A stretch of 64,000 nucleotides of DNA from Chiloscyllium plagiosum. Lineage: Eukaryota. Position numbers and translations under genes: made by a program. The DNA lies in NCBI RefSeq assembly GCF_004010195.1, contig NC_057720.1:19559380-19623379 (forward strand), read 5' to 3'. Shown here in pieces: positions 5,797-62,817 of this stretch. The notes beneath the pieces were generated by a model that searched no databases, was not told the DNA's origin, and worked only from the letters and a program-made list of their open reading frames with translations. How positions within the stretch are numbered: the first letter of the stretch is position 1; the number at the start of each line of letters is the position of its first letter.

Positions 5797-6025
5797 ACAA
5801 AAACAGAAAGTGCTGGAAAAGCTCAACAGGTGTGGCAGCATCTGTGGAGAGAAATCAAAGTTAACTTTTCAAGTCCAGTGACCTTTCTCCAGAACAGTTC
5901 TGAGGAAGAGTCACTGGACCCAAAATGTTAACTCTGATTTCTCTCCATAGGTGTTGCTAGACTTGCTGAGCTTTTCCAGCAGTTTCTGTTTTTGTTTCTG
6001 ATTTCCAGCATCCACAGTTCTTTTG
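5797..6025. mobile_element. Family C palindromic short repeat (related copies about 6615-6715, 10866-10990, 14720-14950, 31370-31500, 37200-37315, 59356-59625, 62270-62385)
   Basis: Inverted arms of about 95 bp (aaaacagaaagtgctggaaaagctc..gaac / gttc..gagcttttccagcagtttctgtttt). Confidence 0.75.
5897..5933 (+). ncRNA. Decayed minimal hammerhead motif, family C
   Basis: GUU-CUGAGGA-A-GAGUC(ACUG)GACCC-[G>A]AAAUGUU-AAC; other copies keep GAAACGTTAAC (59541-59551). Confidence 0.55.
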
Positions 6026-7002
6026 GCTCTTATTTACATATGTATTTTGTCCATATGAACTTTCTGAAGATAGTTGATTAGGTTCCACATCAAAAAAATT
6101 ATTTGTAAAACTGTAAGTGCACAGAACTATAAGAAACTTTGTAATATCGATTAGTAATTTGTTGGGAGCTCAGAGTCAAAAACAAAAGCTCCTCAACTCC
6201 AGGGATGTTGTTCCCCAGGGATCTGCAGCAGATATACTAATGAAAAGGCTGAGTGGAGCTTCTCTCTCCAATCTTGCCAATGACACTAACTTAGGACGCA
6301 CTTTAAATACTTGTGGATTGGAACAGAAATTTACAAAGGGACAGAATTTTGTTTGCTCATTTGTCTAATGTGTAATGGAATTCAATGTGGGGAAGTACGA
6401 TGCCTTGAGCTCAGGATCTAAAAGGCAATTTGCATATTTTCTTTACAATGAATATTAATGGTATAATAATTTTAATACTTTGGTGGAACAGGGAAATTTA
6501 GATGTCCACATACAAGAAACGATAAATACTAGTACCTAGGTAGGTAAGAAGGTTCATTGAATGTTGGCCTTTATCACAAGAGGATTGAAATTTGAAAGTG
6601 AGGAAGTACCTCATTCTGATAGAAGGTCATCAACCTGAAACATTAACTCGGTTTCTCCATCCACAAATGCTGCTCGACCTGGTTAGTATTCTAGCATTTC
6701 TGTCTTATTTTCAGAGTTCGTAACATTACCCAAGGAAGATGGCACAGAAACCAGACCATTTGTCACAACTATTCATTGAAGCTGGTGTTCATTTTTGCTT
6801 ATTTAAAATTTAATCTTTATAACCCTCTATTCCCATCTCATTTGCACGCTTGTCTAGCTTCCCTCTAAATGTTCCTATGCTCTTCATTTTAATCACATCT
6901 GGTCACAATGATTTCCACATTCTCACGACCTCACTCTGGGTAAAGAGGTCATTTCTGGATTCCCTATTTGATACTGTGATGGCTATCTTGGGTCATATTA
7001 AT

Positions 7003-7288
7003 GCTGCCTGGTCTGTTGCGCTTTTCCAGCACCACACTTTTCAACTCTGGTCTCCAGCATCTGCAGTCCTCACTTTCTCCTAATTGATCTTAACCTACTG
7101 CGAATCCTCTTGCAAGGAAGCCTACCTTGAAGAAGCTCTCCTCCTCCCTCTACAAGGATCTCAGTGAGTCCCCCTCTCACTGCACACCCAGGTCATCTCC
7201 TCTGCCGGATGCTGCCTGGCCTGCTGCGCTTTTCCAGCACCACACTTTTCAACTCTGATCTCCAGCATCTGCAGTCCTCACTTTCTCC
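7003..7288 (+). mobile_element. Partial tandem of family B PLE termini, 10-bp TSD
   Basis: Two copies of the gctgcctg..ctcactttctcc terminus about 125 bp apart; TCATATTAAT at 6993-7002 and 7289-7298. Confidence 0.75.
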
Positions 7289-7447
7289 TCATATTAATTT
7301 TAATCATGCTTTTCCCATAAGAGGAAATTTCTCTGCATATCCATTCCACCAAAACCATTCACAATTTCAAAGACCTCTAACTGGGCAACTTGTTTCAAGA
7401 GAGAAGGCTGAAAAACCTCCTGGTCCTATGCAAACAAAAAGGCATAC

Positions 7448-7557
7448 CGTCGGAATTCCGCATCTGCCAGAAGCTCCTCCACCATTGTTCGTTTTCTTTC
7501 TTTCTTCGGAACACGAGAATGATAGAAGTCTACTGGATTGTCCAGAATTGTACCAAC
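7448..7557 (-). CDS. DNTTIP2: DNTTIP2 exon 6 (Fcf2 domain)
   Basis: VGTILDNPVDFYHSRVPKKERKRTMVEELLADAEFR; tgtag/GTATGC sites; 110 nt. Confidence 0.97.
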
Positions 7558-8808
7558 CTACAAAAAAAGATAGATGAGTGTAATATTACCCTGAAGACTA
7601 AGTTTAAAGAAGTTATATTGAAATGAAGCCTGCATGAATTAATAGCATCTAGAAATATGTTGGAACTCTTTGATGAAGAGTATCAACACAAGATTTAATT
7701 TTTTCGTGTTGCATTTTTCTAATATAAAGTTGGTTTTGATTGATCTCAGCTTTGTTTTCCGCTACTTCTACCACCGTGGGGAGGATAAAGGAATAATTTC
7801 AGAGATTGCTCTCCACAATTAGCAGCACAGGTAGAAACTGGACAACCGGTTAAGGGGATAACATGTATGTTGCTCATATTGAGGATTTAACAGAGGGTCA
7901 GGGAAACTATTGCGTCTAGTTGAGGAGTCTTCGATTTAAAATGAGGACGATATGGTAAGTTTCACAAAATCTCTTTTTACAGATGTTTTTGGACTTGGAA
8001 ATACTTTGTCACACCATGAGCTTGAGACAGGGACCATTGAAAGGCCAGGTAAAGACTGTGGAAATATCACTATCGATTCTGGATGATCTTCATATCCGAG
8101 CAAACTTTTCAGAATAGTCACTAGCTAATTAACAGATGCAGAAAGCTATGACTAACTTTCTCCTCCTCTCTAGACTAGAAATTCTGATAGCAATTATAAT
8201 GTTGGCACAGTGCTAAATTAGACCATTTTACCCAATAAGGATCCAAGCTCAAATCCGTCTGGTGCCTGCAGCTCAGCTCCAGTCTCTGGAGATAGCTTTA
8301 CCCTAAGGCAACACGATATCAAATTTGAAACCTTGATTATAATTTCCTACATTGCAGCTAATATTGTAATTACAGCCCTCATTTTCGGCATAATCAGTTG
8401 TTTCTGAACAGTGTGGGACTCTTTGCTTCAGTGCCCAGCATTAATGTTGACACTGTTTATGCACTGTAGGTAATCTCAGGCTCAATGTCCAGTATCATTG
8501 GTTCAAGCTATTCCTCTCTGTATTGCATGCTTACAAATAGACTCATCCTCAAAGAGATAACTGATGCAAAACTAACTTTGCCTCCTAGTGTACTGTCTTC
8601 TCAAACTGAGTCAGTGGGTAGAATGATAATCACGTATAGCTACAGAGCTTCCACCATGCTTAATGGTTTAGACGTCTGAGTACTTTGATATATTTTGCAA
8701 AAGCAACTTTAATAATTGCTATATATTACAAGCTGGCTTTATTACTGATAAAGCTAGAAGTTCCAAATGCATCACATTATATAGCTGTCCTTACCAGCTA
8801 ATACATAC

Positions 8809-8973
8809 CTGGAAGTATTTAGGGAAGCCTTCACGGTCATTTTTCTTGTAGAAACGCTTGGGGTTGATTGCTGCCCTCATTTTTAGTGCCTTCAGGTCAT
8901 TCTTCAATTCGTCAGTTATTTCAGGAGCTTTCATATTGTACCAGCCATCGCCTGCTGTCTTTGCACGTTCTAC
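8809..8973 (-). CDS. DNTTIP2: DNTTIP2 exon 5 (Fcf2 domain)
   Basis: VERAKTAGDGWYNMKAPEITDELKNDLKALKMRAAINPKRFYKKNDREGFPKYFQ, the Fcf2 pre-rRNA processing domain signature; tttag/GTATGT sites; 165 nt. Confidence 0.97.
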
Positions 8974-9281
8974 CTAAAGGAACAAAAGAAAGATTGAAAT
9001 AAAGACAGGCTATTAAAGGCATAGCAATCTACAGAGATTCGTTTGCATTAATTTGAAGTTTCGATTTTTATTTTAAATCAACCTGTTCACAGATGCTATT
9101 GCACACAGCTGGAGCAGGTGGGACTTGAACCTAGGCCTCCTGGTTCAGAGGTATGGATACTATCATTTCACCACTCAGAAGTTTAAGCTTGTTCCTAAAT
9201 ACAGTGATATTATCAGACAGAGACAGAATGAACAAACGATTGCTACATGTTAATTACTAACGCCACAGACTCCGTACCTAC

Positions 9282-9377
9282 CCTGCGTTTTTTCTTCAGT
9301 TGACGGGTGGACTCTTTTAAAAGTGGAACACTATCTTGTTTTTCAAATTCTGGTGTCAGGATGGTATTTGCCAACAG
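9282..9377 (-). CDS. DNTTIP2: DNTTIP2 exon 4
   Basis: ccttag|LLANTILTPEFEKQDSVPLLKESTRQLKKKRR|gtaggt; 96 nt, phase 0. Confidence 0.95.
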
Positions 9378-9727
9378 CTAAGGAACAGAAATATCAATTT
9401 TAAAATAATTCATGCAGAAAATGCTATCATTTATTTGAATATCAAACACATTATGGCATTACTATGCTCTAATTGCTACTCCAGCCAAAAGCTGGCATGT
9501 TCCCTAGTGCATATCTTAATGTCCAGTTTAGACAGATACAGAACATTTAAAGAGAAAAGTAAATTATTCCCTCTCCTCTCCTGAAAGTTCCAGAGACTAT
9601 TCCCTATGGTTCAACCTCCTCTTGTACTTTGTTAAAATGATTTGGAGATGCCGGTGTTGGACTAGGGTGTACAAAGTTAAAAATCACACAACACCAGGTT
9701 GTAGTCCAACAGGTTTAATTGGAAGCA

Positions 9728-9762
9728 CACAAGCTTTCGGAGCAATGCTCCTTCATCAGGTG
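9728..9762 (-). ncRNA. Minimal hammerhead motif, PLE family A (intact, sense to DNTTIP2)
   Basis: CAC-CUGAUGA-A-GGAGC(AUU)GCUCC-GAA-AGCU-U^GUG. Confidence 0.75.
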
Positions 9763-10191
9763 ATAGTGGATGGCTCCATCGTAACACAGAATTTATAGCA
9801 AAAATTTACAGTGTGATGTAACTGAAATTATACATTGAAAAATTGATTGTCTGTTAAGCCTTTCATCTGTTAGAATACAGTGATAGGTTCACTTCTTTCA
9901 TGTGTAAATCACAAAACCTTTTTTTAAAAAGTTGCATTCTCGGGTTAGCTGTTAACAATGGTGATAGCTAGACAACATATTGTTTAGCTATCACATTGTT
10001 AACAGCTAACCTGAGAATGCAACTTTTTAAAAAAAGGTTTTGTGATTTACACATGAAAGAAGTGAAACTATCACTGTATTCTAACAGATGAAAGGCTTAA
10101 CAGACAATCAATTCTTCAATGTATAATTTCAGTTACATCACACTGCAAATCTTTGCTATAAATTCTGTGTTACGATCGAGCCCCCCACAAT

Positions 10192-10226
10192 CACCTGATG
10201 AAGGAGCGTCGCTCCGAAAGCTAGTG
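10192..10226 (+). ncRNA. Minimal type-I hammerhead ribozyme motif, PLE family A (intact)
   Basis: CAC-CUGAUGA-A-GGAGC(GUC)GCUCC-GAA-AGCU-A^GUG; stem I CAC/GUG, 5-bp stem II, palindromic AGCU as stem III. Confidence 0.8.
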
Positions 10227-11499
10227 TGCTTCCAATTAAACCTGTTGGACTATAATAGCCCCCGTGTACTCTGTCTATGCCATGATGTTTAGATTGATTC
10301 TAATCTAAAAAGTGAGATAACAGAGTTTTACATCAATTCATGCAGTTTTTGAGCTCAGAGTTCTACATGAATGTTTGCAGTTTTTGAGCAAAGTGCAATG
10401 TAACTCTGCAAGTACAAATTCACCCCACAAAATATATGTGTGCATGTGGGTCTTTGTCTGTCTGTGTGTGTCTGTCTGTCTGGGGTGGTGGTTGTGAGTG
10501 TGTGGGGGAATTAAGCCTAATTCTGACCACGCATCTTTCGAATAAAAGACACCAAGTGGTAAGAGGGTAAATACCCGAAATGAATCATACTAATAAGAAA
10601 TTGATATTAGCCAATTCCTCTTAGTCTCACTGTACCCCTATAAGTTTATTTATTGTTAACATGCTCAAACCACCTCTCCGTTATGTATAATAACCCTGGC
10701 ACAACGACTGAAATTAATTCACTTCATTTAGCTGGTGTCAAAACCTCAAAGTTGATGCCATTTCTGTCTTGGCTTCAAACAATGGTTAGAATTGATGAAC
10801 CAAGTTTTCCAACAAAGGTAAAAATATCGAAAGCATGCTGACTGACCTAAAAGTAACATACACAGACAGTGCTGGAGAAAAACATGTCTAGTAGCATCTG
10901 TTGAAAGAAAAACAGAGATTACGTTTCAAGTTATGTCACCCTTCATTAGAACATTGTAAACGAAGGGTCACTTGACTTGAAACATTAACTTGTAAAAATT
11001 CCGTCTCGGGACGTGGGAATTGTTGACAGAGTCAGCGTTTACTGTTTATCCCCAATTGTACAGCCTTTTTGACAAAACGTGACTTGTTATAGGTAGTGAT
11101 TTCCAGGTTGTTATCACTTGCTGTGTAAAAAAATGTTCTTGTGCACATTCCAGCTACATCTCATGCCCAAATCCTTAAATCTAGGCTCCCTCGCCTTGTA
11201 CCATCAGCTAATGTAAACACCCTTTCCTGGTCTACCTTATCTAAAACCTACCAGAATTTTCCAAATTTTCAATCTCCTCTCAATTTCCTTTGTCCAAGAA
11301 GAACAACCCAGTTTCTCCAATGTAAGCCCATAGCTAAAATACCTCAACCTTGGAACCATTCTGGTATATCTCCTCTTCATTCTCTCAAGAACCTCATATT
11401 CATTCTAAATTTTGGGGATTAGAAGTCTAGTTGGGATGGAACCAGAGCTTTCTGAATGCTTTATTACTCAATGCCTCTATTTAATCTGACAGTACTGAA

Positions 11500-11985
11500 G
11501 AAGTTTGATAGTATCATTAGGTTGGTTCCGGAGTTGAGAGGGTTGGCTTATGAGGAGAGATTGAGTAGACTGGGACTATAGGAATTTAGAAGAATGAAAG
11601 GGGATCTTATAGAAACATAAAAAATATGAAGGGAATAGATAAATATAGAAGGAGGGAGGTTGTTTCCACTGATGGAAGGGGGCATAGCCTCAACATAAGG
11701 AGGGAGCAGCTTTAGGACTGAGTTAAGGAGGAACTTCTTCATCCAGAGTTGTGAATCTGTGGAATTCCCTGACAAGTGAAGCAGTTGAGGCTACTTTGTA
11801 AAATTTTTTAAGGCTAAGATTGATAAATATTTGAGCAATAAGTGTATTAGGGGCGATAGTGAGCAGGCGGGTAAGTGGAGCTGAGTTCATGAAAAGATCA
11901 GCCATGATTTTATTGAATGACAGAGTAGGCTCGACAGGCCAGATGGCCTACTCCTGCTCCTATTTCTTGTGATCTTATGTTGCAT
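11500..11985 (+). mobile_element. CR1 3' end
   Basis: GLAYEERLSRLGL, NFFIQ..NLWNSL-like segment, cctactcctgctcctattt tail. Confidence 0.8.
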
Positions 11986-13116
11986 TCTTATGTTCTATCC
12001 AAGATAAAGCAGCCTGCTTGGCTGGCACCCTAACCTTCACTCTCTCCACCACTGAAACGCAATGACAACATGTGCAGCACCTGAAAGATGCAGTTCAACA
12101 ACTCACCAAGGGTCATAGAGATGTACAGCACAGAAGCAGACCCCTTGGTCCAACTTGTCCATGCCGACCATATATCCCAACCCAGTATCTTCCAAACACA
12201 CAACTGTTTCACAAGTAGTACATAGTCAGCAGATACATGGGAACTCTGCCATCTGCAAAGCTCTCTCCAAGCCACTTGTGATCCTGATTTGCAAATATAA
12301 TGGTGTTCCTTAATTGTTGTTGGTTCAAATTCCCTGAAAACTTCTTCCCTAACAACACAGTGGACATCCCACACCACATGGTCTGCAACAAATCAAGACA
12401 GCAGCACCTTCTCAAGGGCAGTTAGGGGTGGGAAATAAATTCAAGCAATGTTCACATCCCATGAATGACTAAAACAAAAATTAAACAGGCATAAATACAT
12501 ATCCTCTGTCAACCATATTCTCAACATGTCCTGCCACCTTTAAAGGTCTGAGCGTATGTACATACACTCCGAGGTCCTCTGCCTCCATACTCTTCAGAAC
12601 TCTGGCATCAAGCCTTTACTGCCTTACCCTATACCTTCTACCAGTATCATCTTTGTGCACAACATTAGTGAATCATATGAAGGAAAAGAAAAAGACAGAG
12701 GGTGGTGGTGGAGGGCTGCTTTTCAGACTGGAGGCCTGTGACCAGCGGTGTACCACAAGGATCGGAGCTGGTCCACCACTTTTTGTCATTTACATAAATG
12801 ATTTGGATGTGAAGATTCTGTACATTTTGTGTAATTACCTTAAATCATTAGTTCAAATTACTCTAAACACCAGTGACAAAACCTGAAGCCATCAAAATAC
12901 TTCATAATGGTGTTGCACAGGCCAAAAGGCTCTCTGCAGCCACAGACCGTGGTCAAAAAGAGAGTCTATGCAAAATTACATTGCCCCTGCTTGCTCAGTT
13001 TGACACAGCAAAAATGAAAAATTACAAACGCCTGACTTCCTGACGCTGCACTGCCCATAGTGAGTTAATATTAAACCAAGGATGGGATACAGCTCAGAAA
13101 GCACCCAGCATCTTAC

Positions 13117-13255
13117 CTCATCACTTTCCTTTTGCTCCTTTAATTTTTTAAAAGCTTTTGCCTTAGGGCCCTGTTTTTCAGGATCGAAGTTTATGTACAG
13201 ACCACCTAGTTCTGTCAGATTAAGTCCTGGATCAATTTTGTTTGACAATTTGATT
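13117..13255 (-). CDS. DNTTIP2: DNTTIP2 exon 3
   Basis: ttcag acceptor; IKLSNKIDPGLNLTELGGLYINFD matches the DNTTIP2 IDPGL..LGGLYINF motif; donor GAG|GTAAGA; 139 nt restores phase 0. Confidence 0.95.
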
Positions 13256-15411
13256 CTGAAATATAAAAGAAATTAAACAAGTTCACCAACTTATTCATTA
13301 GAAGCTCAGCTGCAAAAGTTAAATAATTCAAACAGAAAATTTGGGCTGAATAGAATGGACTAGTATTGAAGAATAAGGTAATCTTTCACCTGACGAAAGC
13401 TTGTGATTTCAAATAAACCTGTTGGACAATAACCTGGTGTCATGTGACTTCTGACTTTAGTCCACCCCAGTCTAACACTGGCATCTCCACATCTTTAATA
13501 TATCTAACCTAACCTAACCTACACAGGACTACAGCCACTCGCGGTAACGTATTCCACAGATTCACGAACCTCAGAAGAAATTCCTTCTCTTCTCTGACTT
13601 GGACAGATGACTGCTTAATCTAAGATTACACCCTCTGGTCCTGGACTCTCCCACAAGACAAAACCATAGGATGTAAGAACAGGAGTAGGCCATTTGGCCC
13701 ACTGAGTGTGCTCTGCATAAATGAGGGCAGGGCTGATCTGATAATCCTCAACTCCTTGATAGTCTAGTGATGTTATCTCTAGACTATTAATCCAGAGCCT
13801 CAAACAATGTTCTGGAAACCCAGTTTCAAATCCCACCATGAAGGTTTGAATTCAATAAAGATCTAGAATTAAAAATCTAACTGCAATACTGTTGTTGATT
13901 ATCCAGAAAAACAATTCACCATCTGGTTCACTAAAGTCCTTTAGGAAAGAAGCTTTTACCTTTCCTTTGGCTGGCCTACATGTGATTCCAGAACCACAGT
14001 AATGGTGTTGACACTTAACTGTCCTCTGGACACTTAGAGATGGGAAATAATTGTAAGCCTGACCAGTGCCACTCACATCCTGCGAATTTTTTAAAATCAC
14101 CATAATCCTTGACCACCTTACTGATTAAAAAGCCCTGCCTTTAATATACAACCTCTCAGCATCTAATCTGTCAAGTTTCCTAAGAATCTGATGTTTCAAT
14201 AAGATCGCCTCTCATGATGCATTCAAGACTGTGATGGAATACTCTCTGTGGATTCACAGAGACACTGAAGAAGCTTGACACCATTCAACCTGCTTTGGAA
14301 TTTACTTCCTCCAGCACAAACACATCTGAACCATCTAGAAAGACAAGGGCACCATCACCTGCAGATGCCCCTCCAAGTCACTCACCATCCTGATATGGAA
14401 CAATATTGCTGACCTTCAATATTGTAAAACCAAAATTCCAGAATCCCCTTCCAGCAGCACTGTGGAGGTACTCTGTACCATGTAGACCACAGCGATTCAA
14501 GAAGGCAGCTCATCATCACCAACTCTCAGGTAATTAGGGATGAGCTACAAATGTTGCAGCAGTGCCCAATCCCACTGAAGAATTTTCAAAAATATTAGTG
14601 AATGTAGAAGTATTGCCTCTTCCATACCACTGAGCATTTAGAATGAGTTCACTCATACTTTCTCTGGCTGTGGTGCCTATGTCACCCTTTCCTTGTATAT
14701 TCAATTGTCTTGTCAATGTAACAAAAGCATAAATTGCTGGAAAAACTCAGCAGGTCTGGCAGCATCTATGGATGTTTAACGTTTCAGGTCCAGTTATGAA
14801 GCAGAGTTAACGTTTCAGGTCCAGTTATGAAGGGCCACTAGACTTGAAATGTTAACTCTGCTTTCTCTCCACAGATGCTTGCCAGACCTGTTGAGATTTT
14901 CCAGCAACTTCTGCTTTTGTTTCTGATTTATAGCGTCTGCAATTCTTTAAATTTTTCTCGTCATGTGATGTGTTTCCTTCACGTCTGCCATAAACAGCAC
15001 CTTCCATACCACTATCACCTCAAAAGGACAAAAGCAGCAGATACATTGAGACACTGGCCCCTGCAAATTCCCCTTTAAACCACTCATCACAACCTTGGAA
15101 TTATGTTGCCATTCCATCACTGTTGCTGGGTCAAAATCCTGGAACTCCCTCCCTCCCTAACAATGTGGTAGATGTACTTAAACCAAATTGACCGCAGGGA
15201 TTGAAGACAGAAGCTAATCAATTTCAATTAAGGATGTGCAATAATTGCTGGTCCAGTCACTGAAGCCCACATCCTGAGTGAATAAAATAAAACTAAACTA
15301 TTGACTCTGTTTCTCTCCCCATATGCTATCTGTTCTGCCAAGTATCTCCACCATGGATTGCTTTGAGAAAGTACTTTACAAATGAGTTTGCAAAACTACT
15401 GCTTTACTTAC

Positions 15412-16169
15412 AAATTAGAATTTTTCTTCAAAGTATCACTGTGTTCATCTTCATCAAAAAAGTCATCATCGTCTTCCTCTGACTTCCCGTCTCTGTCACC
15501 AGCGTCGTCCCCACTTTCAACACTCCCCTCCTTTTCGTCCCCACTTTCACCACTCCCCTCCTTTTCTTCATTCAAGTCCAAGTAATATTGTGTATCCTGA
15601 TCTGCTCCTGGTCGTTTGTCAATCATAAACAGGTTGCTACCCGTCGCCAAGGGGCTTCCTGCTGTGTCAGGTACAAAGGCAGAGGGTTCAGATGAAACAT
15701 TAGGTTTGGATGTAACATTTATACTGGATTCTTCCAAAAACGTTCCAGTGCCACCATCCTCCAAAGTGTCTTTGTCTTCATCGCTGCTAAGCTGCAAACT
15801 GATAATGGGCGGAGTTGCACTTCGGGTTTTATTATTTAAATTTTTCTCTGTATCCTCCTGTTCCTCAACATTTGCCTCTTCATCAATCAGGTTAATTTCA
15901 TACACTTCTGTTTTGCTTGGCTTGTCCGCTCCAGTTTCTGCATTATTTTCTCCAATGGTCCTTTCTGAACATTGGTCATTTACTTCCAACTTATCACTAC
16001 ATTCTGTTGGCTGCTCTGGACAAGGCTGCGATGCAGTTTCAATGATCTGTTTCTCTCCAACATTTTCTTGTACTTCAGATTGAGATTCCGTAACTTCGCT
16101 CAGAGGTTCAACTCTACTGCGCCTTGTCTTTCTTTGGCTGGCCGGTGTTCTTGATCTAGATTTTGCCTC
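15412..16169 (-). CDS. DNTTIP2: DNTTIP2 exon 2 (acidic low-complexity region)
   Basis: Acceptor tttag|GAG; open frame including ORF 15408..15989 (LFMIDKRPG..YYLD..acidic tract); donor TT|GTAAGT; 758 nt, ends phase 2. Confidence 0.9.
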
Positions 16170-17868: not shown

Positions 17869-17903
17869 TCAGATGTTTCATCACTAGGTAACATCTTCAG
17901 TGA
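17869..17903 (-). ncRNA. Minimal hammerhead motif, PLE family D (near intact)
   Basis: UCA-CUGAAGA-U-GUUAC(CUA)GUGAU-GAAACAUC^UGA; a decayed mirror copy sits at about 18411-18451 (+). Confidence 0.6.
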
Positions 17904-18169
17904 GCCTCAAATAAAGTACTGGCGGTGTAGCCTGCTTTCTATTTATATGTTTGGGTTTCCTTGGGGTGGTGATGTCATTTCCTGTAGTGACATCATTTCC
18001 TGCAGTGATGTCATTTCGTGTTCTTTTTCTCAGGGTGGTAAATGGGATCTAAGGTTAATTGTGTTTGTTGATGGAGTTCCGGTTGGATTGCCAAGCTTTT
18101 AGGAATTCTCGTGCGTGTCTCCTTTTGGCTTGTCCTAGGATAGGTGTGTTGTCCCAAAGTGGTCAGGTA

Positions 18170-18340
18170 GGCAAAAGTGAGGACTGCAGATGCTGGCAAT
18201 CAGAGTCTAGATTAGAGTGGTGCTGGAAAAGCACAACAGGTCAGGCAGCATCTGAGGAGCAGGAAAATCGACATCTCAGGCAAAAGCCCTTCATCAGTGA
18301 GCAAACCTGCTGTGCTTTTCCAGCACCACTCTAATCTAGA
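18170..18340. mobile_element. Family B short palindromic repeat nested inside the family D PLE
   Basis: ggcaaaagtgaggactgcagatgctgg terminus, decayed hammerhead, inverted ttttccagcaccactctaatctaga. Confidence 0.7.
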
Positions 18341-22994: not shown

Positions 22995-23036
22995 CTTCCC
23001 GGTCACGGTGCGCCGTCCACTCCTGGTCTGCACCAT
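22995..23036 (-). CDS. DNTTIP2: DNTTIP2 coding exon 1 (MVQTRSGRRTVTGK)
   Basis: ATG at 23036 in a CpG-rich island; MVxTRS N-terminus resembles vertebrate DNTTIP2; donor AAG|GTAACC; 42 nt, phase 0 matches exon 2. Confidence 0.85.
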
Positions 23037-52069: not shown

Positions 52070-55000
52070 AGAATCATAGAGTCAAAGAGATGTACACGAC
52101 GGAAACAAACCCTTCAGTCCAACTCATCCATGATGACCAGATATCCCAACCCAATCTAGTCCCACCTGCCAGCACCCGGCCCATATCTGTCCAAACCCTT
52201 CCTATTCATCTACCCATCCAGATGCCTTTTAAATGTTGCAATTGTACTAGCCTCCACCACTTCCTCTGTCAGCTCATTCCATACACGTACCACCCTCTGA
52301 GTGAAAATGTTGCCTCTAGGTCTCTTTTATATCTTTCCCCTCTCACCTATGCCCTCTAGTTCTGGATTCCCCAACCCCAGGGGAAAAAAACCCTTTGTCT
52401 ATTTATCCTATCCATGCTCCTCATGATTTTATAAACCTCTGTAAGGTCACCCCTGAATCTCCGACACTCCAGGGAAAACAGCCCCAGCCTATTCAGCCTC
52501 TCCCATAGCTCAAATCCTCCAACCTTCGCAACATCCTTGTAAACCTTTTCTGAACCCTTTCAAGTTTCACAACATCTTTCCGATAGGAAGGCGACTAGAA
52601 TTGCTCGCAATATTCCAACAGTAGCCTAACCAATGTCCTGTACAGCTGCAACAAGACCTCCCAACCCCTGTACTCAATACTCTGACCAATAAAGGAAAGC
52701 ATACCAAACACCTTCTTCACTATCCTATCTACCTGCAACTTCACTTTCAAGGAGCTATGAACGTGCACTCCAAGGTCTTTTTGTTCAGCAACACTCTCTA
52801 GGACTTTACCATTAAGTGTATAAGTCCTGCTAAGATTTGCTTTCCCAAAATGCAGCACCACACATTTATCTGAATTAAACTCCATCTGCCACTTCTTGGC
52901 CCATTGGTCCATCTGATCAAGATCCCGTTCTAATCTGAGGTAACCCTCTTCACTGTCCACTACATCTCCAAATTTGGTGTCATCTACAAACTTACTAACT
53001 ATACCTCTTATGCTCACATCCAAATCATTTATATAAATGTTGAAAAGTAATGGACCCAGCACCGATCCTTATGGCACTCCACTGGTCACAGGCCTCCAGT
53101 CTGAAAATCAACCCTCCACCACCACCCTCTATCTTCTACCTTTGAACCAGTTCTGTATCCAAATGGCGAGTTCTCCTTGCATTCCATGAGATCTAACCTT
53201 GCTCACCAGTCTCCCATGGGAAACTTTGTAGAATGCCTTACTGAACTCCATATAGATCACATCTACTGCTCTGCCCTCATCAATTCTCTTTGTTACTTCT
53301 TCAAAAAACTCAATCAAGTTTGTGAGACATGATTTCCCACGCATAAGCCCTGTTGACTATCTCTAATCAGTCCTTGCCTTTCCAAATACATGTACATTCT
53401 GTCCCTCAGGATTCCCTCCACCAATTTGCCCACCACTGACATCAGGCTCACTGGTCTGTAGTTCCCTGGCTTATCTTTACCACCTTCTTAAACAGTGGCA
53501 CCACGTTAGCCAACCTCCAGTCTTCCGGCACCTTATCTGTGACTATTGATGATATAAATATATCAGTAAGAGGCCCAGCAATCACTTCCCTTGCTTCCCA
53601 CAGAGTTCTGATCAGGTCCGAGGGATTTATCCACTTTTATGCATTTCAAGACATCCAGCACTTCCTTCTCTGTAATATGGACATTTTTCAAAATGTTATC
53701 ATCTATTTCCCTGCATTCTATATCTTCCATGTCCTTTTCCACAGTAAATACTGATGCAAAATACTCATTTAGTATCTGCTCCATCTCCTGCGGCTCCACA
53801 CAAAGGCTGCCTTGCTGATCTTTGAGGGGCCCTATTCTCTCCCTCATTACCCTTTTGTCCTTACTGTATTTGTAAAGCCCCTTTGGATTCTCCTTAATTC
53901 TATTTGTCAAAGCTATTTCATGTGCTCTTTTCGCCCTCCTGATTTCTCTCTTAAGTATAAGCCTACTGCCTTTATACTCTTCAAAGGATTCACTCAGTCC
54001 ATCCTGTCTATACCTGACATATGCTTCCTTCTTTTTCTTAACCAAACCCTCAATTTCCTTCGTCATCAGCATTCCCTGTACCTACCAGCATTTCCTTTCA
54101 CCCTAACAGGAATATACTTTCCCTTGACTGTTGTTACCTCATTTCGGAAGGCTTCCCATTTTCCAGCTGTCCCTTTACCCTGCGAACATCTGTGCCCAAT
54201 CAGCTTTTGAAAGTTCTTGCCTAATACCGTCAAAATTGGCCTCTCTCCAATTTAGAACTTCAACTTTTAGATCTGGTCTATCCTTTTCCAATACTATTTT
54301 AAAACTAATAGAATTATGGTCACTAGCCCCAAAGTGCTCCCCCACTGACACCTCAGTCACCTGCTCTGCCTTATTTCCCAAGAGTAAGTCAAGTTTTGCA
54401 CCTTCTCTAGTAGGTACATCCGCGTACTGAATCAGAAAATTTTCTTGTACACACTTAACAAATTCCTCTCCATCTAAACCCATAACGCTATGGCAGTCCC
54501 AGTCTATGTTTGGAAAGTTAAATTCCCCTACCATAACCACCCTATTATTCTTACAGATAACTGAGATCTCCTTACAAATTTGCTTCTCAATTTTCCTCTG
54601 ACTATTAGTGGGTCTATAATACAATCCCAATAAGGTGATCATCTCTTTCTTATTTCTCAGTTCCACCCAAATAACTTACCTGGATATATTTCCTGGAATA
54701 TCCTCCCTAAGTACAGTTGTAATGCTATCCCTTATCAAAAATGGTACTCCCTCTCCTCTCTTGCTTCCATTTCTGTCCTTCCTGTCATATCTGTATCCTG
54801 GAACATTAAGCTGCCAGTCCTGTCCATCCCTGAGCCACGTTTCTGTAATTGCTATGGTATCCAATCCCATGTTCCTAACCATGCCCTAAGTTAATCTGCC
54901 TTCTCTGTTAGGCCTCTTGCATTGAAATACTGGTAAATGCAGTTTAATTTATCAGTCCTACCTTGTTCTCTGCTTTGTCCCTGCCTGCCCTGACTTATTT

Positions 55001-55360
55001 GACTTGCCTTTGTTCTCAACTGTACCAGTCTCAGATTGAAATCTTTCCTCACTATCTCCCTGGGTCCCACCCTACCAGATAACTAGTTTAAATCCTCCCG
55101 AGCAGCTCTAGCAAATCTCCCTGCCAGTATATTAGCCCCCTTGCAATTTAGGTGCAATCCGTCCTTCTTGTACAGGTCACGTCTACCCCAAAACAGCTTC
55201 CAATGATCCAAAAGTGTGAATCCTTCTCCTGTACACCAACCCCTCAGCCATGCATTCATCTGCTCTATCCTCCTGTACTTGCCCTCATTATCTTGTAGCA
55301 TCGGGAGTAATCCAATATTACTACTCTCAAGGACCTCCTTTTTAAATTCCTGCCTACTTA
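52070..55360 (-). mobile_element. CR1 LINE: ORF1 esterase C-terminus, most of ORF2 and 3' tail
   Basis: SGNH-type DGLHLN/NAWLRGWC; endonuclease IAITETWL, GEFNFPNIDW, SDHN; RT LGPLLFNIYINDL..SKFVDDTK; several frameshifts. Confidence 0.95.
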
Positions 55361-56229
55361 GAAAAGTGTCTTTTATATATTGTAACTGTGCCCACATCCA
55401 CTACTGATTGAGGAAGTTCATTCTACATGCAAAGCACCATACTTTGAATTAATCTGAGGTTTACATCCTTCAATACCCTACCTGAAAGGCTATGTGAAGA
55501 GGTTCTTCCTCATATTATTCCTCATACGTTATACATTTCTCAGTTTCACCTTGTTTTAATGTTATGTCTTATGCTTAAATTATCTTCACTTTCCTCATCA
55601 AGAACCTCTATGATTTAACCTTCAAGGAAAGGATTCTGGTTTCTCCAATCTTTAGTCTTCACTCGGTTTTTGAATACCTGACATGAATCTTCTAGGTCTT
55701 TTCAGTGCATCTCTACAACTTGATAGTTTCTCTGCCACTTTGGGGATCAAAATTGAATATAATACTGAAAATGGAGTCTCACCAAAGCACAATTACAATT
55801 TAACTTGCTTCTCCTCATTGGTTGCTGATGGAGCAATATCATTTAATACTCTGTTTAAAGTGTTTTGCATACTCGTGCAGAAATCTGAGATGCTCAGTGC
55901 CACATTTATGATTGCATCAGAAATATTTCATCTCCATTACTGTGGAACTCAAGTATAGCAAGTACAAATAGATAATTATATACAAATACTTTGCATAGTT
56001 TAGTATTTAGAATATAACAACTTGTAATATTGGATGAACAACCAAAGTTATTTGCTCCATCTAAGTAACATTGTGTGAAAGGAATATGATTTTCAATCTG
56101 GTCCTTCTCAATAGCTTAAGCAATAAAATATCATATTCAGGCAGGATACAGGGTTAGAAGTTAGCAGGTGACTTGGGGGAACTACAACTGTGGGTCAGAA
56201 GTTAGGAATATGTCAACGAGTAGCTCACC

Positions 56230-56786
56230 TTCTGACGGTCTGAAGCCTGTCCACCATCTACAAGGCATGAGGCAAGACTGTGATGGAACGTTCCCTAATT
56301 TTCCAAATGAGTGTTGCTTCAAAATGCTTGAAGAGCTTGATACCATCCAGAATAAAGCAGCCCGCTTGATTGGCATCACATCTGAAAGCATCCACTCCTT
56401 CCACCACTGATGCTCAGGAGCAGCAATGTGTACAATCTACAAGATACACTGCAGAAATTCTCCAAAGGTTCTGAGACAGCACCTTGCAAATCCATGACCA
56501 GTTCCATCGAGAAGGACAAAGGCACAGACACATGGAAACATCTCCACCTGCAAGTTCCCCTCCAAGTCACTCATCATCCTGACTTGGAAATATATCACTG
56601 TTCCAGTAGTGTCACTGGGTCAAAATCAAGGAATTTCCTCCTAAAACACATTAAACCTATAGCATGTGGACTGCAGCGGTTCAAGAAGGCAGATCATCAC
56701 TACCTTCTCAAAGGCAGCAAAAGGCAGGCAATTAAAAGGCAGGCCCAGTTAGCGATGCCCACGTCCCATGAGTGAATAAAAAAAAA
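56230..56786 (+). mobile_element. Second CR1/L2-group LINE 3' end (related copies about 12000-12480, 14215-14590, 14960-15290, 36950-37160)
   Basis: ELDTIQNKAARLIG..SIHSFHH..VYNLQ; tail caagaaggcag..ttctcaa..gatgcccacgtcccatgagtgaataaaaa. Confidence 0.7.
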
Positions 56787-57689
56787 TGTTGGAACCATTG
56801 TGAAGGTCAGTCTGAAAGTAGGAGTATGAGCTAACTGTTTGCTCTCCCATATTTATCTCCCTATTGTGCAAGGAGGAGGGAAGGGAAACTATTCCATTCA
56901 TCTACAGATCGATGGTGACATTTTATCTATGGCACATGCTTGGGCTAATGACTTAATGAACGTGCATAATATTGTCACAGTTGCAGTTTAAACATATGAT
57001 GATATAAACAAATGACACCTGGCAGCACATTTACCAACCCCAGGAAGACCCAATTAAAAACGCAGATGTTTTTCTGTCTCCCTGAGTAAACTACAGTTTG
57101 ATTTTAATGTGGTTATAACCTACGTGAGGTCTGTATAGCCTGCAGCTGAAAAGGGAGACAAAGGAAGAAAGGATGAAAAAAAGAGATAAAGAGGAGAGAA
57201 GTAAAAGAAAGAAAAAAGGACAGCAGGAGAGGGAGAAAGAAAGAAATACATTTAAAGTAGTTTTTAAGACCATCAGATATCTTTTACCGTATTAAGCCAA
57301 ATAAGTTTTTGTGAAGTATTGCTGAAACAAACATTTTGAGAAAGCTTTTCATCTTGCACTCGTTAGGATAATTCACAAGAAATCCCAAAGTAAAGGAAAA
57401 ATAACATTGATCCTGGCCAACGAAGCAGAAAATGGCCAACGCCAATTTCGTAGCATTGAAACAGGTGCAGTATTCACTTCTGAAAGCAATGCTGTGGTTG
57501 ATCAGAGGCAATCTGCCTTGTTTAATGTTTAAACAACAGTCAACAGTTTTCTGTCAGTCATCATTAACTGGTGCATTTTCCACAGTAACATCTCAATGAA
57601 TCAGAGTCCACCTACCAACCAATCAGCACTCTCCTCTAAGGCAGTATAAATGTTATTTTCCCTTTACTTTGGTGAATTATAATGAGTAA

Positions 57690-58808
57690 GTGGGGTAGCC
57701 ATGGGTACATGCTTGGGACCCAGCTATGCCTGTCTCTTCACTGGGTACATGGAACAGTCCCTCTTCTGCAACCATGTCCCACCTTTTTCTCCGCTACTTT
57801 AATGACTGTATTGGCACCACCTCTTGCTCCCATGAGGAGGTTGAACAGTTAATCAACTTCACCAGCACTTTCCCCCCTAGCCTCAAATTCACATGGACCA
57901 TCTCGGACATCTCCCTCCTGTTCCTGGACCTCTCCGGCGACCGACTCAACACAGACATCTATTTCAAACTACCAACTCCCATAGCTATCTGAACTCCACT
58001 TCCTCCCAGCCCCAGTCCTGTAAAAGTGCAATCCCTTACTCCCAATTCCTATGCTTCTGCCGTATCTACTCCAAGGAGGAGTAATTCCACTCCAAGACAT
58101 CCCAGACACCCTCCTATTTCAAGCAATTTCCCCTCCCACGGGATTAACAATCCCCCCCATCGAATCTCCTCCACTTCCCACACCTCTGCCCTCCAATGCG
58201 ACTCCCCAACAAGCAAGGATAGAACCCCCCTCCCACACTCCTCACATGCCATCCCATGAATCTTCAGATATAGCACATTATTCTTCACCATTTTTGCCAC
58301 CTATATTCAGACCCCACCACCAAAAATATATTTCCCTCCCACCCTTATCTGCATTCTGCAGAGGTCATACCTTCCACGACTCCCTCATTAGGTCAATGCT
58401 CCCACCAACCCAATCAGCTGGCACTTTCCCCTGCTGCCACACGAGGTGCAAAATCTGTGCTGACACCTTCCCCCTCACCTCCATCCAAAGCCTCAAATGA
58501 TTGTTTCAAATCCAGTAGTGATTTTCCTGCACATCTTCCCACCTCATTTCCTGCATCCATTGCTCTCGATGTAGTCTTCCCTACATCGGGGAGACAGAGT
58601 GCCAACTTGTAAAAGGGTTCAGGGAACATCTCTGGGACACACGCACCAAACAACCCCATCACCCTGTGGCTGACCACTTCAACTTCCTCTCACATTCCCC
58701 TAAGGACATGGAAATCCTGGGCCTCCTCCACCGCCAAATCGAAACCACCCACCAACTGGAGGAAGAACGCCTCATCTTCCGTCTCGGGACCCAAAATCAC
58801 ACAGCATC
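57690..58808 (+). mobile_element. Decayed Penelope-like element ORF (RT plus GIY-YIG endonuclease)
   Basis: GVAMGTCLGPSYA, LFLRYFNDCIG, LKFTWTIS, CCHTRCKIC, CSRCSLPYIGET..FREHL, VADHFN; frameshifted. Confidence 0.85.
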
Positions 58809-59205
58809 CTGGGGAGTAAACCGACCCCTTGGAGCTACACAGTTGCTATTGGAACTAACCAATGGAAAGAACCCGTTCCTACCACTTGCCCCAGGACGTG
58901 GAGTAATGGGAATCGAAGACGGCGCTAAATTCCCGTGGAGTCATTGAGACGTTGGTGTTGGAGAGGGGGGGGGGGGGGGGGAGACACTCCCATTCTTGGT
59001 CACATTTCGGTCTTAGCTCCACCCTTGGATAGAGTTTCCCAGAGCCCAAAGGGGAGATGGCTGAGCGTCCGCTCCACTGCCAAACAGCTCCAGCCTTGCT
59101 GAGCCTCTGAACTGCTGTAACAGCATCGGAGCTGCTCCTGTGAAGCTGCACAGTGTGTACACCCGGAGGGAAATCCGGCGCTGACACTCGCTATCTCTTG
59201 CAGCA

Positions 59206-59229
59206 ATGAGCCGGGCCACTTTCTTCGAG
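59206..59229 (+). CDS. Probable first coding micro-exon (MSRATFFE), possibly of a TECR-family trans-2,3-enoyl-CoA reductase
   Basis: CpG-rich zone about 58900-59350; gcaATG context; strong donor GAG|GTAAGA, phase 0; resembles the short TECR exon 1 (MKHYE|VEILD); no downstream exon recognised in the window. Confidence 0.45.
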
Positions 59230-59267
59230 GTAAGAGGATAACGGAGGGGCAAAACGTCAAACCGGTA

Positions 59268-59516
59268 AGACTGCAAACAGACCTGCACCCAGAGGACCTC
59301 CGCTCATAACCCATGTAAAGGGCGATCCTGCTGAGGCAAAAAAAAACCCCACTAGAAGTTGCTGGAAAAGCTCAGCAGGTCTGGCAGCACCAGACTGCAA
59401 ACAGACCTGCACCCAGAGGACCTCCGCTCATAACCCATGTAAAGGGCGATCCTGCTGAGGCAAAAAAAAACCCCCACTAGAAGTTGCTGGAAAAGCTCAG
59501 CAGGTCTGGCAGCACC
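59268..59516 (+). repeat. Tandem duplication, 124/125-bp unit
   Basis: 59268-59391 and 59392-59516 are identical except one extra C in a homopolymer. Confidence 0.95.
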
Positions 59517-60084
59517 TGTGCAGAGTTACGATTTCGGGACGAAACGTTAACTTTGATTTCGCTTCACAGATGCTGCCAGACCTGCGGAGCTTTTCCAGCA
59601 ACCTTTCCCCCCTGATTTACAGCATTCGTTCGATTTTTATCTATTGCTGAGGAATCGGTTTTCATGGTGTGTCTGAAAGTAGTCAGCGGTGTATCTTGGT
59701 GCTCTGCCGGACTCCAGCGAGAATCATTTGCCCCTCTACTGCAGGGCATAGGCGTGCAAAAAGTCAAAATATGGTGAGCCTCTGAACTGCTTGGAGCGTG
59801 GTCGGTGTTTTACGCCTTCAGTGAACTGCAATTGCTCGTGCTGTTACAGTACTTGGTGTCAATATTCGTGTGTAAGTAAGTGTAGATGCAGCACTCCTGG
59901 TTCTCACTCATTCTGAATTGCACTGAAAACTCTTGGGATAGGACGAGGTTGGAACTGGATAATGGTAGGTGTTAGATTGTGTTGTTAACAGGAGAGATGC
60001 ACCCGTACCGGATGTTCGCAAACGTCAAGGGGATTCATTGGTTTTTCACTGCACCGTGAGACTCCCAGGATATTGGGAAGCAAG

Positions 60085-61620
60085 CATTACAGCAAAAGAA
60101 TTGAGAGCTGGAGGATGCCACAGGCCCCTCCAGCTTGCTTAGCCATTCAATACAATCATGAGTGATCAGATTGTAACCTCAAATCCCCTTTCCTGTCTCT
60201 CTCCATAATCTTCCACTCCCCTACAATTCCAAAATCCTTAAATTTATCCGTAAATATATCCAGTGACGGGGCTTCCACTGCTTTCCATGGGTAGAAAATT
60301 CCAAAATATCACCACCCTCTAAGTAGATATGCTCGTTTTCTTAAAAGGTTCTAGATTTCCCCCTTGGTTCTAGATTTTCCCATGAGGGATAATATCCTCT
60401 CAATATTTACTCTGTCAAGCCCTATCTGAACCTTATTTGGTCCAGCTGCTTGAATCATGGAATGGCTACAGCAGAGTAGGAGGCCATTTGGTCCATCATA
60501 TTTGTGTCATCTCTCTGGAAGTGCAATTCATCCATTGCCCCTCCTTCATAGTCTTGTACATTTATTTCACTTTAGATAATGATCCACATTCTCAGATGGT
60601 GGATCCCAAATCCTAATCACTTGCTGCTTAAGGTACTAAGAGTCATAGTCATAGTCGTGGAAGTCTACAGCACAGAGAAAGGCCCATTGTGTCCATGCCT
60701 GTCTGAAACACCCACCTAACTATTGTAATATCATTTTCCAACACTTGGCCCATAACTTCTTATGCCTTGGCCTCACAAGTGCACATCTAAATACCTTCTG
60801 AAATGTTATGGAGGTTTCTGCCTCTATCACAGTTACAGGGAGTGAATTCCAGATTCCACCACCGTCTGGATGAAAAGATTTTCCTCACATCACCATTAAA
60901 CCCTTGGCTCCTCTTGTTCCTCAAGTTGCTTTTGATTCTTTCGCCATCATCGGTTCATGACCTTTCTGTGAGTAACAAGTTTCTCCCCATTTGCTCTGTC
61001 TAGACTCCACATGATTTTGAAACTCTCTACCAAATTCCCTCTGCTCCAATCTCTCTTTATGGACAACAACCCAATCTTTCCAATCTATCCGTGTAGCTGA
61101 AGTTCCTGATAACTGGAGACATCGCTTGAATTTTTTTTTGCATCCCTTAACTGCCTTCACAGCTTTTCATGTCAAAGTCTGATGCTTAGAACTGGACACA
61201 AAACACCAGGTGAGGCTGAACCAAGATTTTAAACAGGTTTATCACACTTCTTTGTTTTTGTAATCTGTACTCTTATTTATAAAGTCCAGGATCCAGTTTA
61301 ATTGATCAACCACTTTCTCAGCTTTGCATACTACCTAAATGACTTGTGCACATATCACTGCAGGACCCTCTGCATTTGCACCTCCTTTAGAATTGTATCT
61401 TCCTATCAGAATGAATCATTTCAGACATCATTCTTCATTTTTCTAAATTCCATTGATTATACGCCCAACCTGATCGACTTTAACACGTAAGACAATCCAT
61501 TCATTCCATGAATCTGTGAACTTGCTATGAACTACCGCCAATGCAAATAAAACTCTCTTTAAATAAGGAGTCCAAAACTGTACACAGAACTGCATTTTAA
61601 CTGTCAGCAAAACCTTCAAG
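60085..61620 (-). mobile_element. Cluster of old CR1 3' fragments
   Basis: Several CR1 tails plus FCVQFWTPYLKR motif (ORF 61443..61661). Confidence 0.65.
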
Positions 61621-61779
61621 ATTGAATTACAGTGTTTAACTCTCATTTGGACTTCAGACAAAATATGTAATTAATTCCAATTGCTATCTCCCATATCCTG
61701 ATTCTACAAACAAAATATGCGTAGTTTTGTAAAATGTATTGACGAGTGTGCATTTTTAGTCAATTACATAAATTGGCAG

Positions 61780-62098
61780 GGGATGGCCCAGTGGGATTAT
61801 CACTTGACCTGATATTCCACTAGACCTATTAATGTTCTGGGGATCTGGGTACAAATCACACTATAGCAGTTAGAGGAATTTAAATTCAGCAAAAATCTGG
61901 GATTAAAAGTCTCCTGATGATCATGAAAACTATTACTAATTGTTGGGGAAAAACCCATTCATCGGTTCACAATGTCTATTAGGCAAGGAAACTGTCATTC
62001 TTACCTGGTCTGGCCTATGTGAGACATTAGAATCTCTGGGCAATGAGTGCTGGCCTTGCCAGCAATGCCCACATCCTGTGAATAAATGAAAAAAAAAA
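61780..62098 (+). mobile_element. Second SINE family (copies about 13760-14095, 45200-45480, 51560-51850 on +; 62600-63290 on -)
   Basis: tRNA-like head (cagtgg..ggt.caaatc), shared body ggttcac..aggaaactg..cttacctggtctggcct, tail gcccacatcctgtgaataaatgaaaa. Confidence 0.7.
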
Positions 62099-62817
62099 CA
62101 CTTATTGACACTGGTGGATTGTAAAGTTGATGGTTTATAAATTAATAATATCTCACATGTGAACGAAATCTAAAACTCTGTTATGATGGAATTCCCATCA
62201 CCTTCACCACATGAGTTTAAGAAGTTTAGCACCTTTGTTCTAAAATAAACAATTTTGTCTTAGACGAGTGAAAATGAAAAATGCTGGAAATAGAGTCATA
62301 GAGTCATAGAGGTGTGACAGTGGGTCAGGCAACATCCATGGAGAGAACAAGTTAACGTTTTGAGTCTAGATGACTCTTCACCAGATCAATTAGATAATCT
62401 ATATTTTTCCATAATTTATGAAACCATCAATGAAATTACTCCTTAACCTGCCAAGCAAGCAGACCAGGGATACAACTGAATATCATGATGTCTCTTGTTG
62501 TACTTCAACATTACAAAATGGAATCCAAGAATCATTTTATTCTTTTTAGGCCAAAGTGGGTGACCTCAAATTCATCTAAATTAAAATTTACAATGTACAG
62601 ATATTTTCTTCTTTATTCTTTCATGGGATTTGGACATCACTGGCACCACCCCCATTTACTGCTCAATCCTTAGTTCTCTTGAATTGGTGACCTGCTAGGC
62701 CATTTCAGAGGGCAGTTAAGAAACAACTACATTCCTGCAGATCTGGTGTCACATGGAGGCCAAAGTAGTTAATGTGGCAGATTTCCTTCCCTAAAGGGAT
62801 TGCTGACAGTCTCAGTA

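Follow-up and report, generated by a model that had tools for sequence, protein, structure and literature searches.

Penelope-like elements (PLEs) carry minimal type-I hammerhead ribozymes (HHRs), a class that is not new, having been described in 2014. Other vertebrate genomes hold thousands of dispersed copies of these ribozymes; those of one genome fall into several consensus families, show compensatory changes and include pairs on opposite strands (Cervera and De la Pena 2014, PMC4209133). Minimal HHRs show low activity as dimers held by a 4-nt palindrome (PMC4209133; PMC6765202), and dimer cleavage was reported by Lunse et al. 2016, as cited in PMC6765202. In PAc, a Poseidon element of Anolis carolinensis, reverse transcription starts internally at tail sites, HHR mutants are without effect on insertion in vitro, and the HHR cleaves only with the protein (Frangieh et al. 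2024, PMC11167929). Here we analysed a stretch of 64,000 nucleotides from the shark Chiloscyllium plagiosum (NC_057720.1, positions 19,559,380 to 19,623,379; hereafter the window), in which an earlier note had described four repeat families, A to D, sharing one minimal hammerhead fold. We read these motifs, with a probability of roughly 0.85 for the joint statement, as minimal type-I HHRs in the pseudo-long terminal repeat (pLTR) of endonuclease-bearing (EN+) PLEs of three lineages, with 5' ends set by a promoter, short copies that are by-products of insertion, and neutral decay after it.

The shark motifs and the HHRs of PMC4209133 have in common the core-only type-I fold, the extra residue that separates position 9 from 10.1, the G10.1-C11.1 pair and the palindromic 15.2-16.2 segment; both sets consist mostly of solo copies, with opposite-strand pairs and few members in full PLEs. 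The earlier note therefore overstated the discovery, motifs of this kind having already been reported for other vertebrates (PMC4209133). The shark differs in scale, with 71,291 exact motifs (four patterns) against about 9,000 descriptor matches in Xenopus tropicalis and about 4,000 in the coelacanth, figures obtained by different methods, and in its stems, 2-4 bp for stem I and 4-6 bp for stem II against 4-5 and 7-8 bp in Schistosoma (PMC4209133). With PAc, the shark elements share an HHR near the start of the open reading frame (ORF), two internal reverse-transcription start sites that define the tail, and insertion from uncut RNA. The PAc ORF starts at stem II, whereas in shark family A the ATG comes after the tail, some 92 nt downstream of the cut site; moreover, the 5' ends of genomic copies and the poly(A) site, mapped here, are not mapped in the available part of PMC11167929. 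One of the two supplementary files of PMC4209133 contains no shark term, and the literature we searched held no shark PLE hammerheads, no 5' ends at TATA+30 and no PLE strong-stop transfer; coverage was thin for subscription journals and bioRxiv supplements, and this is not proof of absence.

Two of the motifs named in the earlier note are these:

10192 to 10226, plus strand: family A minimal HHR, fully intact (3-bp stem I, CUGAUGA, extra A, 5-bp stem II, GAA, AGCU palindrome, H = A10223), with TATAAA at 10157-10162 and AATTAAA at 10234-10240.
38745 to 38836, minus strand: family B end (motif 38806-38836) with stems II and III intact, its 5' side lost to an assembly gap.

The first is exactly as the earlier note wrote it. 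The second A motif, 9728-9762(-), has a U where an A had been given at the cut position, and still satisfies the NUH rule. For family B, the motif at 48836-48871(-) is present, although its stem I (AUUC/GAUU) consists of 2 bp, a U·U and an A-U and falls short of the full 4 bp; stem I measures 3 bp in A and D, and 4 bp in C. The young B copy at 38806-38836 is indeed interrupted by the gap (999 bases, 38837-39835), while the one at 31920(+) has its stem III decayed to ACAU. Family C has no intact copy in the window: 5900(+) reads AAAA/AUGU, 10961 is without the CUGA box and 59541 is a 3' half only. The D copy at 17869-17903(-) carries a 5-nt deletion in stem-loop II and a palindrome changed to ACAU.

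A search of the 63,001 non-N window bases with family profiles, each built from 36-45 genomic copies, returned 38 family matches, 23 of them spanning the hammerhead; all four profiles gave 0 matches in a reversed database. A strict descriptor was passed by five window copies, three with an intact palindrome, and by four more motifs in 197,696 blind bases, for a total of 9 motifs in 261 kb against 0 in each of 60 dinucleotide shuffles. The hammerhead motifs are thus real and far above chance, and only 3/23 window copies retain core, stems and palindrome. Rfam misses them: a covariance-model scan of the window gave no hammerhead family among its 9 matches at E <= 10, and the microRNA-like matches were the inverted repeats.

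Genome-wide (3.56 Gb), exact matches to the intact patterns numbered 12,186 for A, 58,083 for B, 386 for C and 636 for D (71,291 in total), with 0 matches for the reversed-pattern controls. The very large, multi-family system that had been predicted is therefore there, and so are the C form rebuilt from broken window copies and the ACGU stem III that had been postulated for D. In 35 fixed-coordinate stretches (341,200 non-N bases) we found 84 matches, 65 spanning the hammerhead; extrapolation gives roughly 0.51-0.85 million remnants, under Poisson limits only and for large scaffolds only. Compared with this sample, the density in the window is about double. Close pairs, in the window and among the genome-wide pattern matches, are mostly head-to-head. 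Three head-to-head A pairs have an identical 9-nt gap between patterns (G000:C1:12299810-12299888, 19156307-19156385 and 19332921-19332999), and the ends of one of them (L285) lie at -7 and -6. At one locus (L224, G000:C1:95529100-95529900), two intact D hammerheads share a strand and are spaced 387 bp from each other (95529268 and 95529655).

The identity of the elements comes from what surrounds the motifs. In each family, a PLE ORF end precedes the motif and a two-step 3' 'tail' comes after it. Hammerheads follow ORF ends at three A loci (L130, L154, L155), two B loci (L158, L161) and one D locus (L168), and those of C follow broken endonuclease (EN) remnants related to B's (L094, L107, L108). 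Each of the three A loci codes for a reverse transcriptase (RT) and a GIY-YIG-type end, joined by a CxxxxCxxC linker, and the hammerhead comes about 0.7 kb further downstream. At L155 the order, all in one direction, is a decayed hammerhead and tail, an ATG directly after the tail with its ORF, and an intact hammerhead, that is, pLTR-ORF-pLTR; its protein matches Pfam RVT_1 above the cut-off (E 7.5e-08). A single ORF with RT, and with a GIY-YIG endonuclease (bearing a CCHH motif) at the C terminus, was found in A, B and D, C being represented by the broken EN remnants. The closest relatives of the element protein are shark proteins (72-92% identity). ORF remnants of the elements are recognisable by protein similarity; Pfam, run on the window ORF fragments, assigned no family to the PLE fragments and matched only LINE-type (long interspersed element) RT and endonuclease.

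A CX2-5CXXC linker between RT and EN is present in Neptune/Nematis and absent in Poseidon (10.1101/2021.04.23.441226). We found it in A (L155) and B (L158, L161) and not in D (L167, L168); by this criterion A and B/C would be of Neptune/Nematis type, and D of Poseidon type. The proteins of the three lineages are 24-37% identical (A and B, 30% over 373 aa). The B and C 3' flanks alone are 67-68% identical, with z about 9, every other between-family pair having z <= 1.2. By these comparisons, B and C form a single lineage and the PLE ORFs whose ends are A, B and D are homologous, so the families are not unrelated as first described. All families (B1, B2, C and D as well as A) show two 3'-end peaks 30-40 nt apart, which is the PLE tail; in A, 45/113 ends lie at +81..+89 and 43/113 at +120..+122. 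The elements thus have the hallmarks of EN+ PLEs, a 30-40-bp optional tail and an adjacent inverted 5'-truncated copy, and they resemble described EN+ PLEs further in their 5' truncation and in palindromes at inverted junctions (10.1101/2021.04.23.441226; Arkhipova et al. 2013, PMC3846280). Hammerheads of other subfamilies, which differ in their stems and are related to B/C, D and A, were seen at L064:2900-2936(-), L185:9469-9551(-), L177:7114-7157(+) and L020:2694-2732(+).

The fold itself is conserved. Counted per column over 89 A, 124 B, 53 C and 56 D copies, all pre-filtered for near-intact boxes, the core CUGANGA ... GAAA ... UH is kept, in agreement with the earlier description. The extra nucleotide after position 9 is A in 88/89 A, 122/124 B and 51/53 C copies, and U in 50/56 D copies. 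Among rows required to have 3/4 stem II pairs, G10.1-C11.1 is G-C or G-U in 79/79 A, 103/105 B, 26/27 C and 40/43 D copies. Stem III is the palindrome AGCU in A and ACGU in B, C and D, with no helix III or loop 3, as expected of PLE-type minimal HHRs, which the earlier note had rightly recognised. The 124 B palindromes read ACGT in 66 copies, ATGT in 23+3 and ACAT in 16+4, a symmetric CpG decay that supports ACGT as the ancestral form in B and C; D palindromes outside the biased search were ACGT in 9/17. A stem III self-duplex of 4 bp is computed at -3.1 to -4.5 kcal/mol.

Covariation between subfamilies was also borne out, on a few representatives. Ten of them, from B, C and D, changed on both sides in 15/56 cells with 94.6% paired; 0/500 shuffles reached this value and slid registers gave <= 50%. 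The homologous B/C group alone (7 representatives) had 7/56 both-side changes and 92.9% paired. These rows were hand-picked, well paired and related (three A rows were excluded for MAFFT mis-registration), and the figures are descriptive, not probabilities. In stem I, pair 3 is G-C, C-G or U-A and pair 1 is A-U, C-G or U-A, depending on the subfamily; within families, changes are single, chiefly CpG loss. Selection on active master elements would maintain the fold through such compensatory changes, and dispersed copies, those of the window included, would decay neutrally, largely by CpG loss, and most likely be inert. On this reading of the sequences, the motifs may act as self-cleaving ribozymes in these elements.

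We then considered where copies begin, counting positions relative to C3. Among copies unselected for upstream sequence, the -10..+4 bin held the ends of 15/38 A, 57/122 B, 24/62 C and 2/14 D copies. An upstream-unbiased sample, the first-listed pattern matches (40 A, 40 B, 20 C and 40 D regions, all on C1 or C2), had 22/42 A ends at -14..-3, 19/38 usable B ends at -8..-1 (3 dropped for N) and 17/20 C ends at -11..-2. For D, 10/41 ends lay at -22..-12 and 0 at -11..0, a difference in position from B/C with a Fisher p of 1e-07. Chance extension at these ends was mostly 0-1 nt, occasionally up to 13, and the patterns rule out ends downstream of -3 (A), -1 (B), -2 (C) and 0 (D). TATA or TATA-like boxes stand at -38 in A, -35/-37 in B, -33 in C and -48 in D, and a TATA box lies about 30 nt from the transcription start. 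Box + 30 predicts ends at -8, -5, -3 and -18 for A, B, C and D, respectively; the medians are -9, -5, -5 and -15. We take TCATTC/TCAGTT to be initiator-like. A TATA box with an initiator-like motif in the pLTR is common to the shark and Adineta Pen2a, while truncation, described as variable in those reports, is concentrated in the shark about 30 nt below the TATA-like box in a family-specific manner (10.1101/2021.04.23.441226; PMC3846280).

These data suggest a mechanism. The promoter would reside in the pLTR and direct a transcription start immediately 5' of the hammerhead, about 30 nt below the TATA(-like) box. An RT that began at the tail and ran to the RNA 5' end would leave 90-135-bp 'hammerhead + tail' stubs; such stubs account for about half of the intact copies in A and in B, for most of those in C and for a fifth in D. 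Fold-back at the RNA 5' end would produce the head-to-head palindromes, and long copies would derive either from tandem RNA made by read-through or from a jump inside the repeated region. The ribozyme thus probably sits at the transcript 5' end, and the sampled copies probably came from uncut RNA.

Could the 5' pile-up instead reflect an RT stall or template switch at the hammerhead, or a 3' splice site at helix I? This is possible, if doubtful. In B and C the pile-up does coincide with the stem I edge, and C has CAG at -5..-3; in Drosophila virilis, Penelope has an intron end at helix I (PMC4209133) and a TATA-less internal promoter (PMC2377424), and for head-to-head palindromes self-priming on an antisense template has been proposed and is favoured by 10.1101/2021.04.23.441226 and PMC3846280. 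However, D ends follow the TATA box and not the ribozyme, being placed 12-22 nt upstream and absent from -11..0, and this shift of the end with the box favours a promoter-set end over a stall at the ribozyme. Moreover, A and B are without AG at the boundary, and stubs have no shared upstream exon sequence.

RNA data bear on the 3' side of the ribozyme. In run X23, a 3'-biased poly(A) single-cell library labelled as a related species (about 2% of it read, 3,498 reads aligned to L155), depth was sense-biased over the 3' pLTR and very low over the ORF. Poly(A) loose ends accumulated at +57 and +60 from C3 (387 + 458 reads; L155:5229-5232), 15-20 nt below AATTAAA and about 30 nt below the cut site, where the local genomic sequence is not A-rich. 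Polyadenylated A RNAs span the cut site uncut; cut products would be too short for X23 to show them, and no cleavage rate is derivable from it. These RNAs may be host read-through of any of the many copies. Genomic A copies have their 3' ends at +85 or +122, past the poly(A) site, which means that the poly(A) tail did not prime them. The arrangement in A would fit a true U3-R-U5 repeat, with TATA, a transcription start just before the hammerhead, a poly(A) site some 30 nt downstream of the cut and reverse-transcription starts beyond. We hold this only tentatively and think it rather less than probable: read-through tandem transcripts account for the long copies equally well as a U3-R-U5 jump, and B, C and D show no poly(A) signal.

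It seems unlikely that the motif is kept as a protein-binding or promoter-proximal RNA element that rarely or never cleaves. The weak B stem I, copies made from uncut RNA and the polyadenylated A RNA across the cut site would agree with it, as would the 8/9 Xenopus retrozyme dimers left uncut in vitro (bioRxiv 10.64898/2026.07.22.740005) and the good proliferation of PLE clades without an HHR (10.1101/2021.04.23.441226). Nevertheless, three lineages with proteins as divergent as noted above have all retained the catalytic boxes, G10.1-C11.1, the palindrome and a permitted cut triplet, and the Anolis Poseidon hammerhead cleaves with protein while its core mutants are inactive (PMC11167929).

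More improbable is that the stubs are autonomous-style families, of SINE (short interspersed element) or retrozyme kind, spreading via hammerhead-cut circular RNA, and not PLE by-products. They are short units in huge numbers, several flanked by target-site duplications, and there are a few same-strand pairs genome-wide, such as the D pair above. Animal non-LTR (long terminal repeat) retrozymes are likewise pLTR-derived, bear a type-I hammerhead and have been reported from one chondrichthyan genome; they are, however, defined by head-to-tail tandem units, whereas the shark window copies are solo or head-to-head (bioRxiv 10.64898/2026.07.22.740005). Indeed, no hammerhead-bearing tandem array was found in the window. 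The stubs also lack a promoter box upstream of the start and end at the same 3' tail sites as long copies, and the units are not bounded at the cut site, which a cut monomer would need and a religated circle would not. Finally, chance matches or host-domesticated ribozymes of the DNTTIP2 locus are hardly credible, even though two copies, A 9759(-) and D 17900(-), are found inside DNTTIP2 introns and run with the gene: the shuffles rule out chance, 2 exact pattern matches were seen in the window where the genome-wide density predicts 1.3 intact copies per 63 kb, the perfect copy at 10192 runs opposite to the gene, and of the two that run with it, A is held in a hairpin and D has suffered damage.

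Several points weigh against the reading of the motifs as HHRs of EN+ PLEs with promoter-set 5' ends. The third pair of B stem I is U·U in 82/105 copies, a weak stem in the commonest family, although subfamilies B3 and B5 have it fully paired. The hammerhead is not the minimum-energy monomer fold in 6/7 copies (ensemble probability 0.00-0.02; 0.33 for B3), and plain folding of 51-56-nt stretches gives a weak signal (z +0.8 to -2.3 against shuffles). The pLTR-ORF-pLTR order was found directly only in A, with the upstream hammerhead decayed; GIY-YIG matches of B (L158) and D (L167, L168) fall just under the Pfam curated cut-off (E 1.6e-04 to 3.2e-03); and the clade names follow from which motifs are present, not from placement in a tree with named references. 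In B the box is non-canonical (TTTATC/CTTATC), the C TATA position comes from few long copies (1 reference in the end analysis, 4 listed elsewhere), and 2/10 short D ends (L220, L223) stem from internal deletions and are no true 5' ends. The 3'-biased library X23 showed no pile of molecule starts or ends. On the side of the reading, a 5'-end peak at the cut site was sought and not found (6/280 ends within 2 nt, compared with 34/112 B and 43/100 C ends at -6..-2), in a count that takes in loci picked because they span the hammerhead and that tends to miss very short copies.

The other element ends of the window are as follows:

9637 to 10502, both strands: family A PLE 3'-end insertion in a DNTTIP2 intron, consisting of a minus copy (9637-9982; full tail and HHR 9728-9762), head-to-head with a plus copy (9973-10255), and an inverted upstream piece after the latter (10259-10502).
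48744 to 49545, minus strand: family B PLE, 5'-truncated and internally deleted, with RT/thumb remnant 48995-49552 (70% aa identity to the L158 protein over 187 aa), HHR 48836-48871 and tail; it sits within a LINE-like RT repeat, between the two halves of a 15-bp target-site duplication (48729-48743 / 49546-49560).
17830 to 18520, both strands: 3' end of family D (Poseidon-like) on the minus strand, which keeps a C-terminal GIY-YIG remnant, 17938-18216, and a damaged HHR, 17869-17903; includes an inverted D copy, 18373-18520(+), and is interrupted by a B insertion, 18168-18341, with a 9-bp duplication.
5797 to 6025, both strands: family C head-to-head mini-unit, whose two decayed hammerheads have their 5' edges right at the junction (5896); 5783-5791 / 6032-6040 is a candidate 9-bp duplication.
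31784 to 32013, both strands: family B head-to-head mini-unit, HHRs 31914(-) and 31920(+), stem III or core decayed.
46567 to 46791, both strands: decayed family B head-to-head mini-unit, HHRs 46693(-) and 46700(+); 13-bp duplication 46557-46569 / 46792-46804.
14713 to 14948, both strands: family C inverted/duplicated mini-units, hammerhead 5' box gone.
10856 to 10991, both strands: old, decayed family C inverted pair.
20566 to 20958, minus strand: family B 3' end with ORF end and decayed HHR 20620(-).
23895 to 24244, plus strand: family B 3' end with decayed HHR 24114(+) and tail.
25271 to 25578, plus strand: older family A end, decayed HHR at 25493.
44272 to 44537: rearranged family B ends, 5' box gone.
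57716 to 58833, plus strand: broken PLE RT-linker-GIY-YIG remnant, related to the B protein, without an attached hammerhead end.
59353 to 59625: family C fragments, with the 3' half of an HHR at 59541.
6615 to 6702 (plus), 37203 to 37292 (minus) and 62318 to 62387 (minus): further decayed C-type ends.

Remnants of the 3' part only are also present, over the range 6615..62387. Close hammerhead pairs of the window lie on opposite strands and fold as long hairpins; they therefore cannot form an active dimer and are most likely inert. This includes 10185-10235, proposed earlier for dimer cleavage, whose partner at 9728-9762 is on the opposite strand and in a hairpin with it. The A inverted arms at 9699-10255 (262 nt each, 95% complementary) form a 557-nt hairpin of -441.7 kcal/mol. 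The plus A copy stops at 10255 = +60, matching the RNA poly(A) site; this is 1/113 A 3' ends and probably chance.

The host gene is DNTTIP2, with seven exons from 23141 down to 4066 on the minus strand and many PLE ends in its introns; exon 15411-16169(-) is 100% identical to a Chiloscyllium plagiosum protein annotated as DNTTIP2. The A inverted arms sit about 260 nt upstream of the exon at 9377, and the intron-sense copy bears the A-family poly(A) signal, making double-stranded RNA or intronic polyadenylation possible there. Elsewhere, GC-rich stretches lie at 22843-23205, overlapping the first DNTTIP2 coding exon, and at 43122-44310; another dispersed repeat family occurs at 1112-1423, 33851-35376, 44784-45118, 47621-48184 and 62820-63162, some copies beside (TTAGA)n; and many LINE-type RT/endonuclease remnants occupy 37980-43098 and 49600-54807.

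With at least 71,000 intact motifs and about 0.5-0.85 million remnants, this genome offers unusual statistical power on the role of PLE hammerheads and on the regeneration of the terminal repeat. The family-specific match between promoter and 5' end, together with a used poly(A) site between the ribozyme and the reverse-transcription starts, leads to specific and cheap predictions, and the U3-R-U5 arrangement, if true, would answer how PLEs rebuild their terminal repeat. For the host, the A poly(A) site, present in more than 12,000 intact copies, may give genes alternative 3' ends, and the abundant head-to-head hairpins and poly(A) signals may shape host transcripts.

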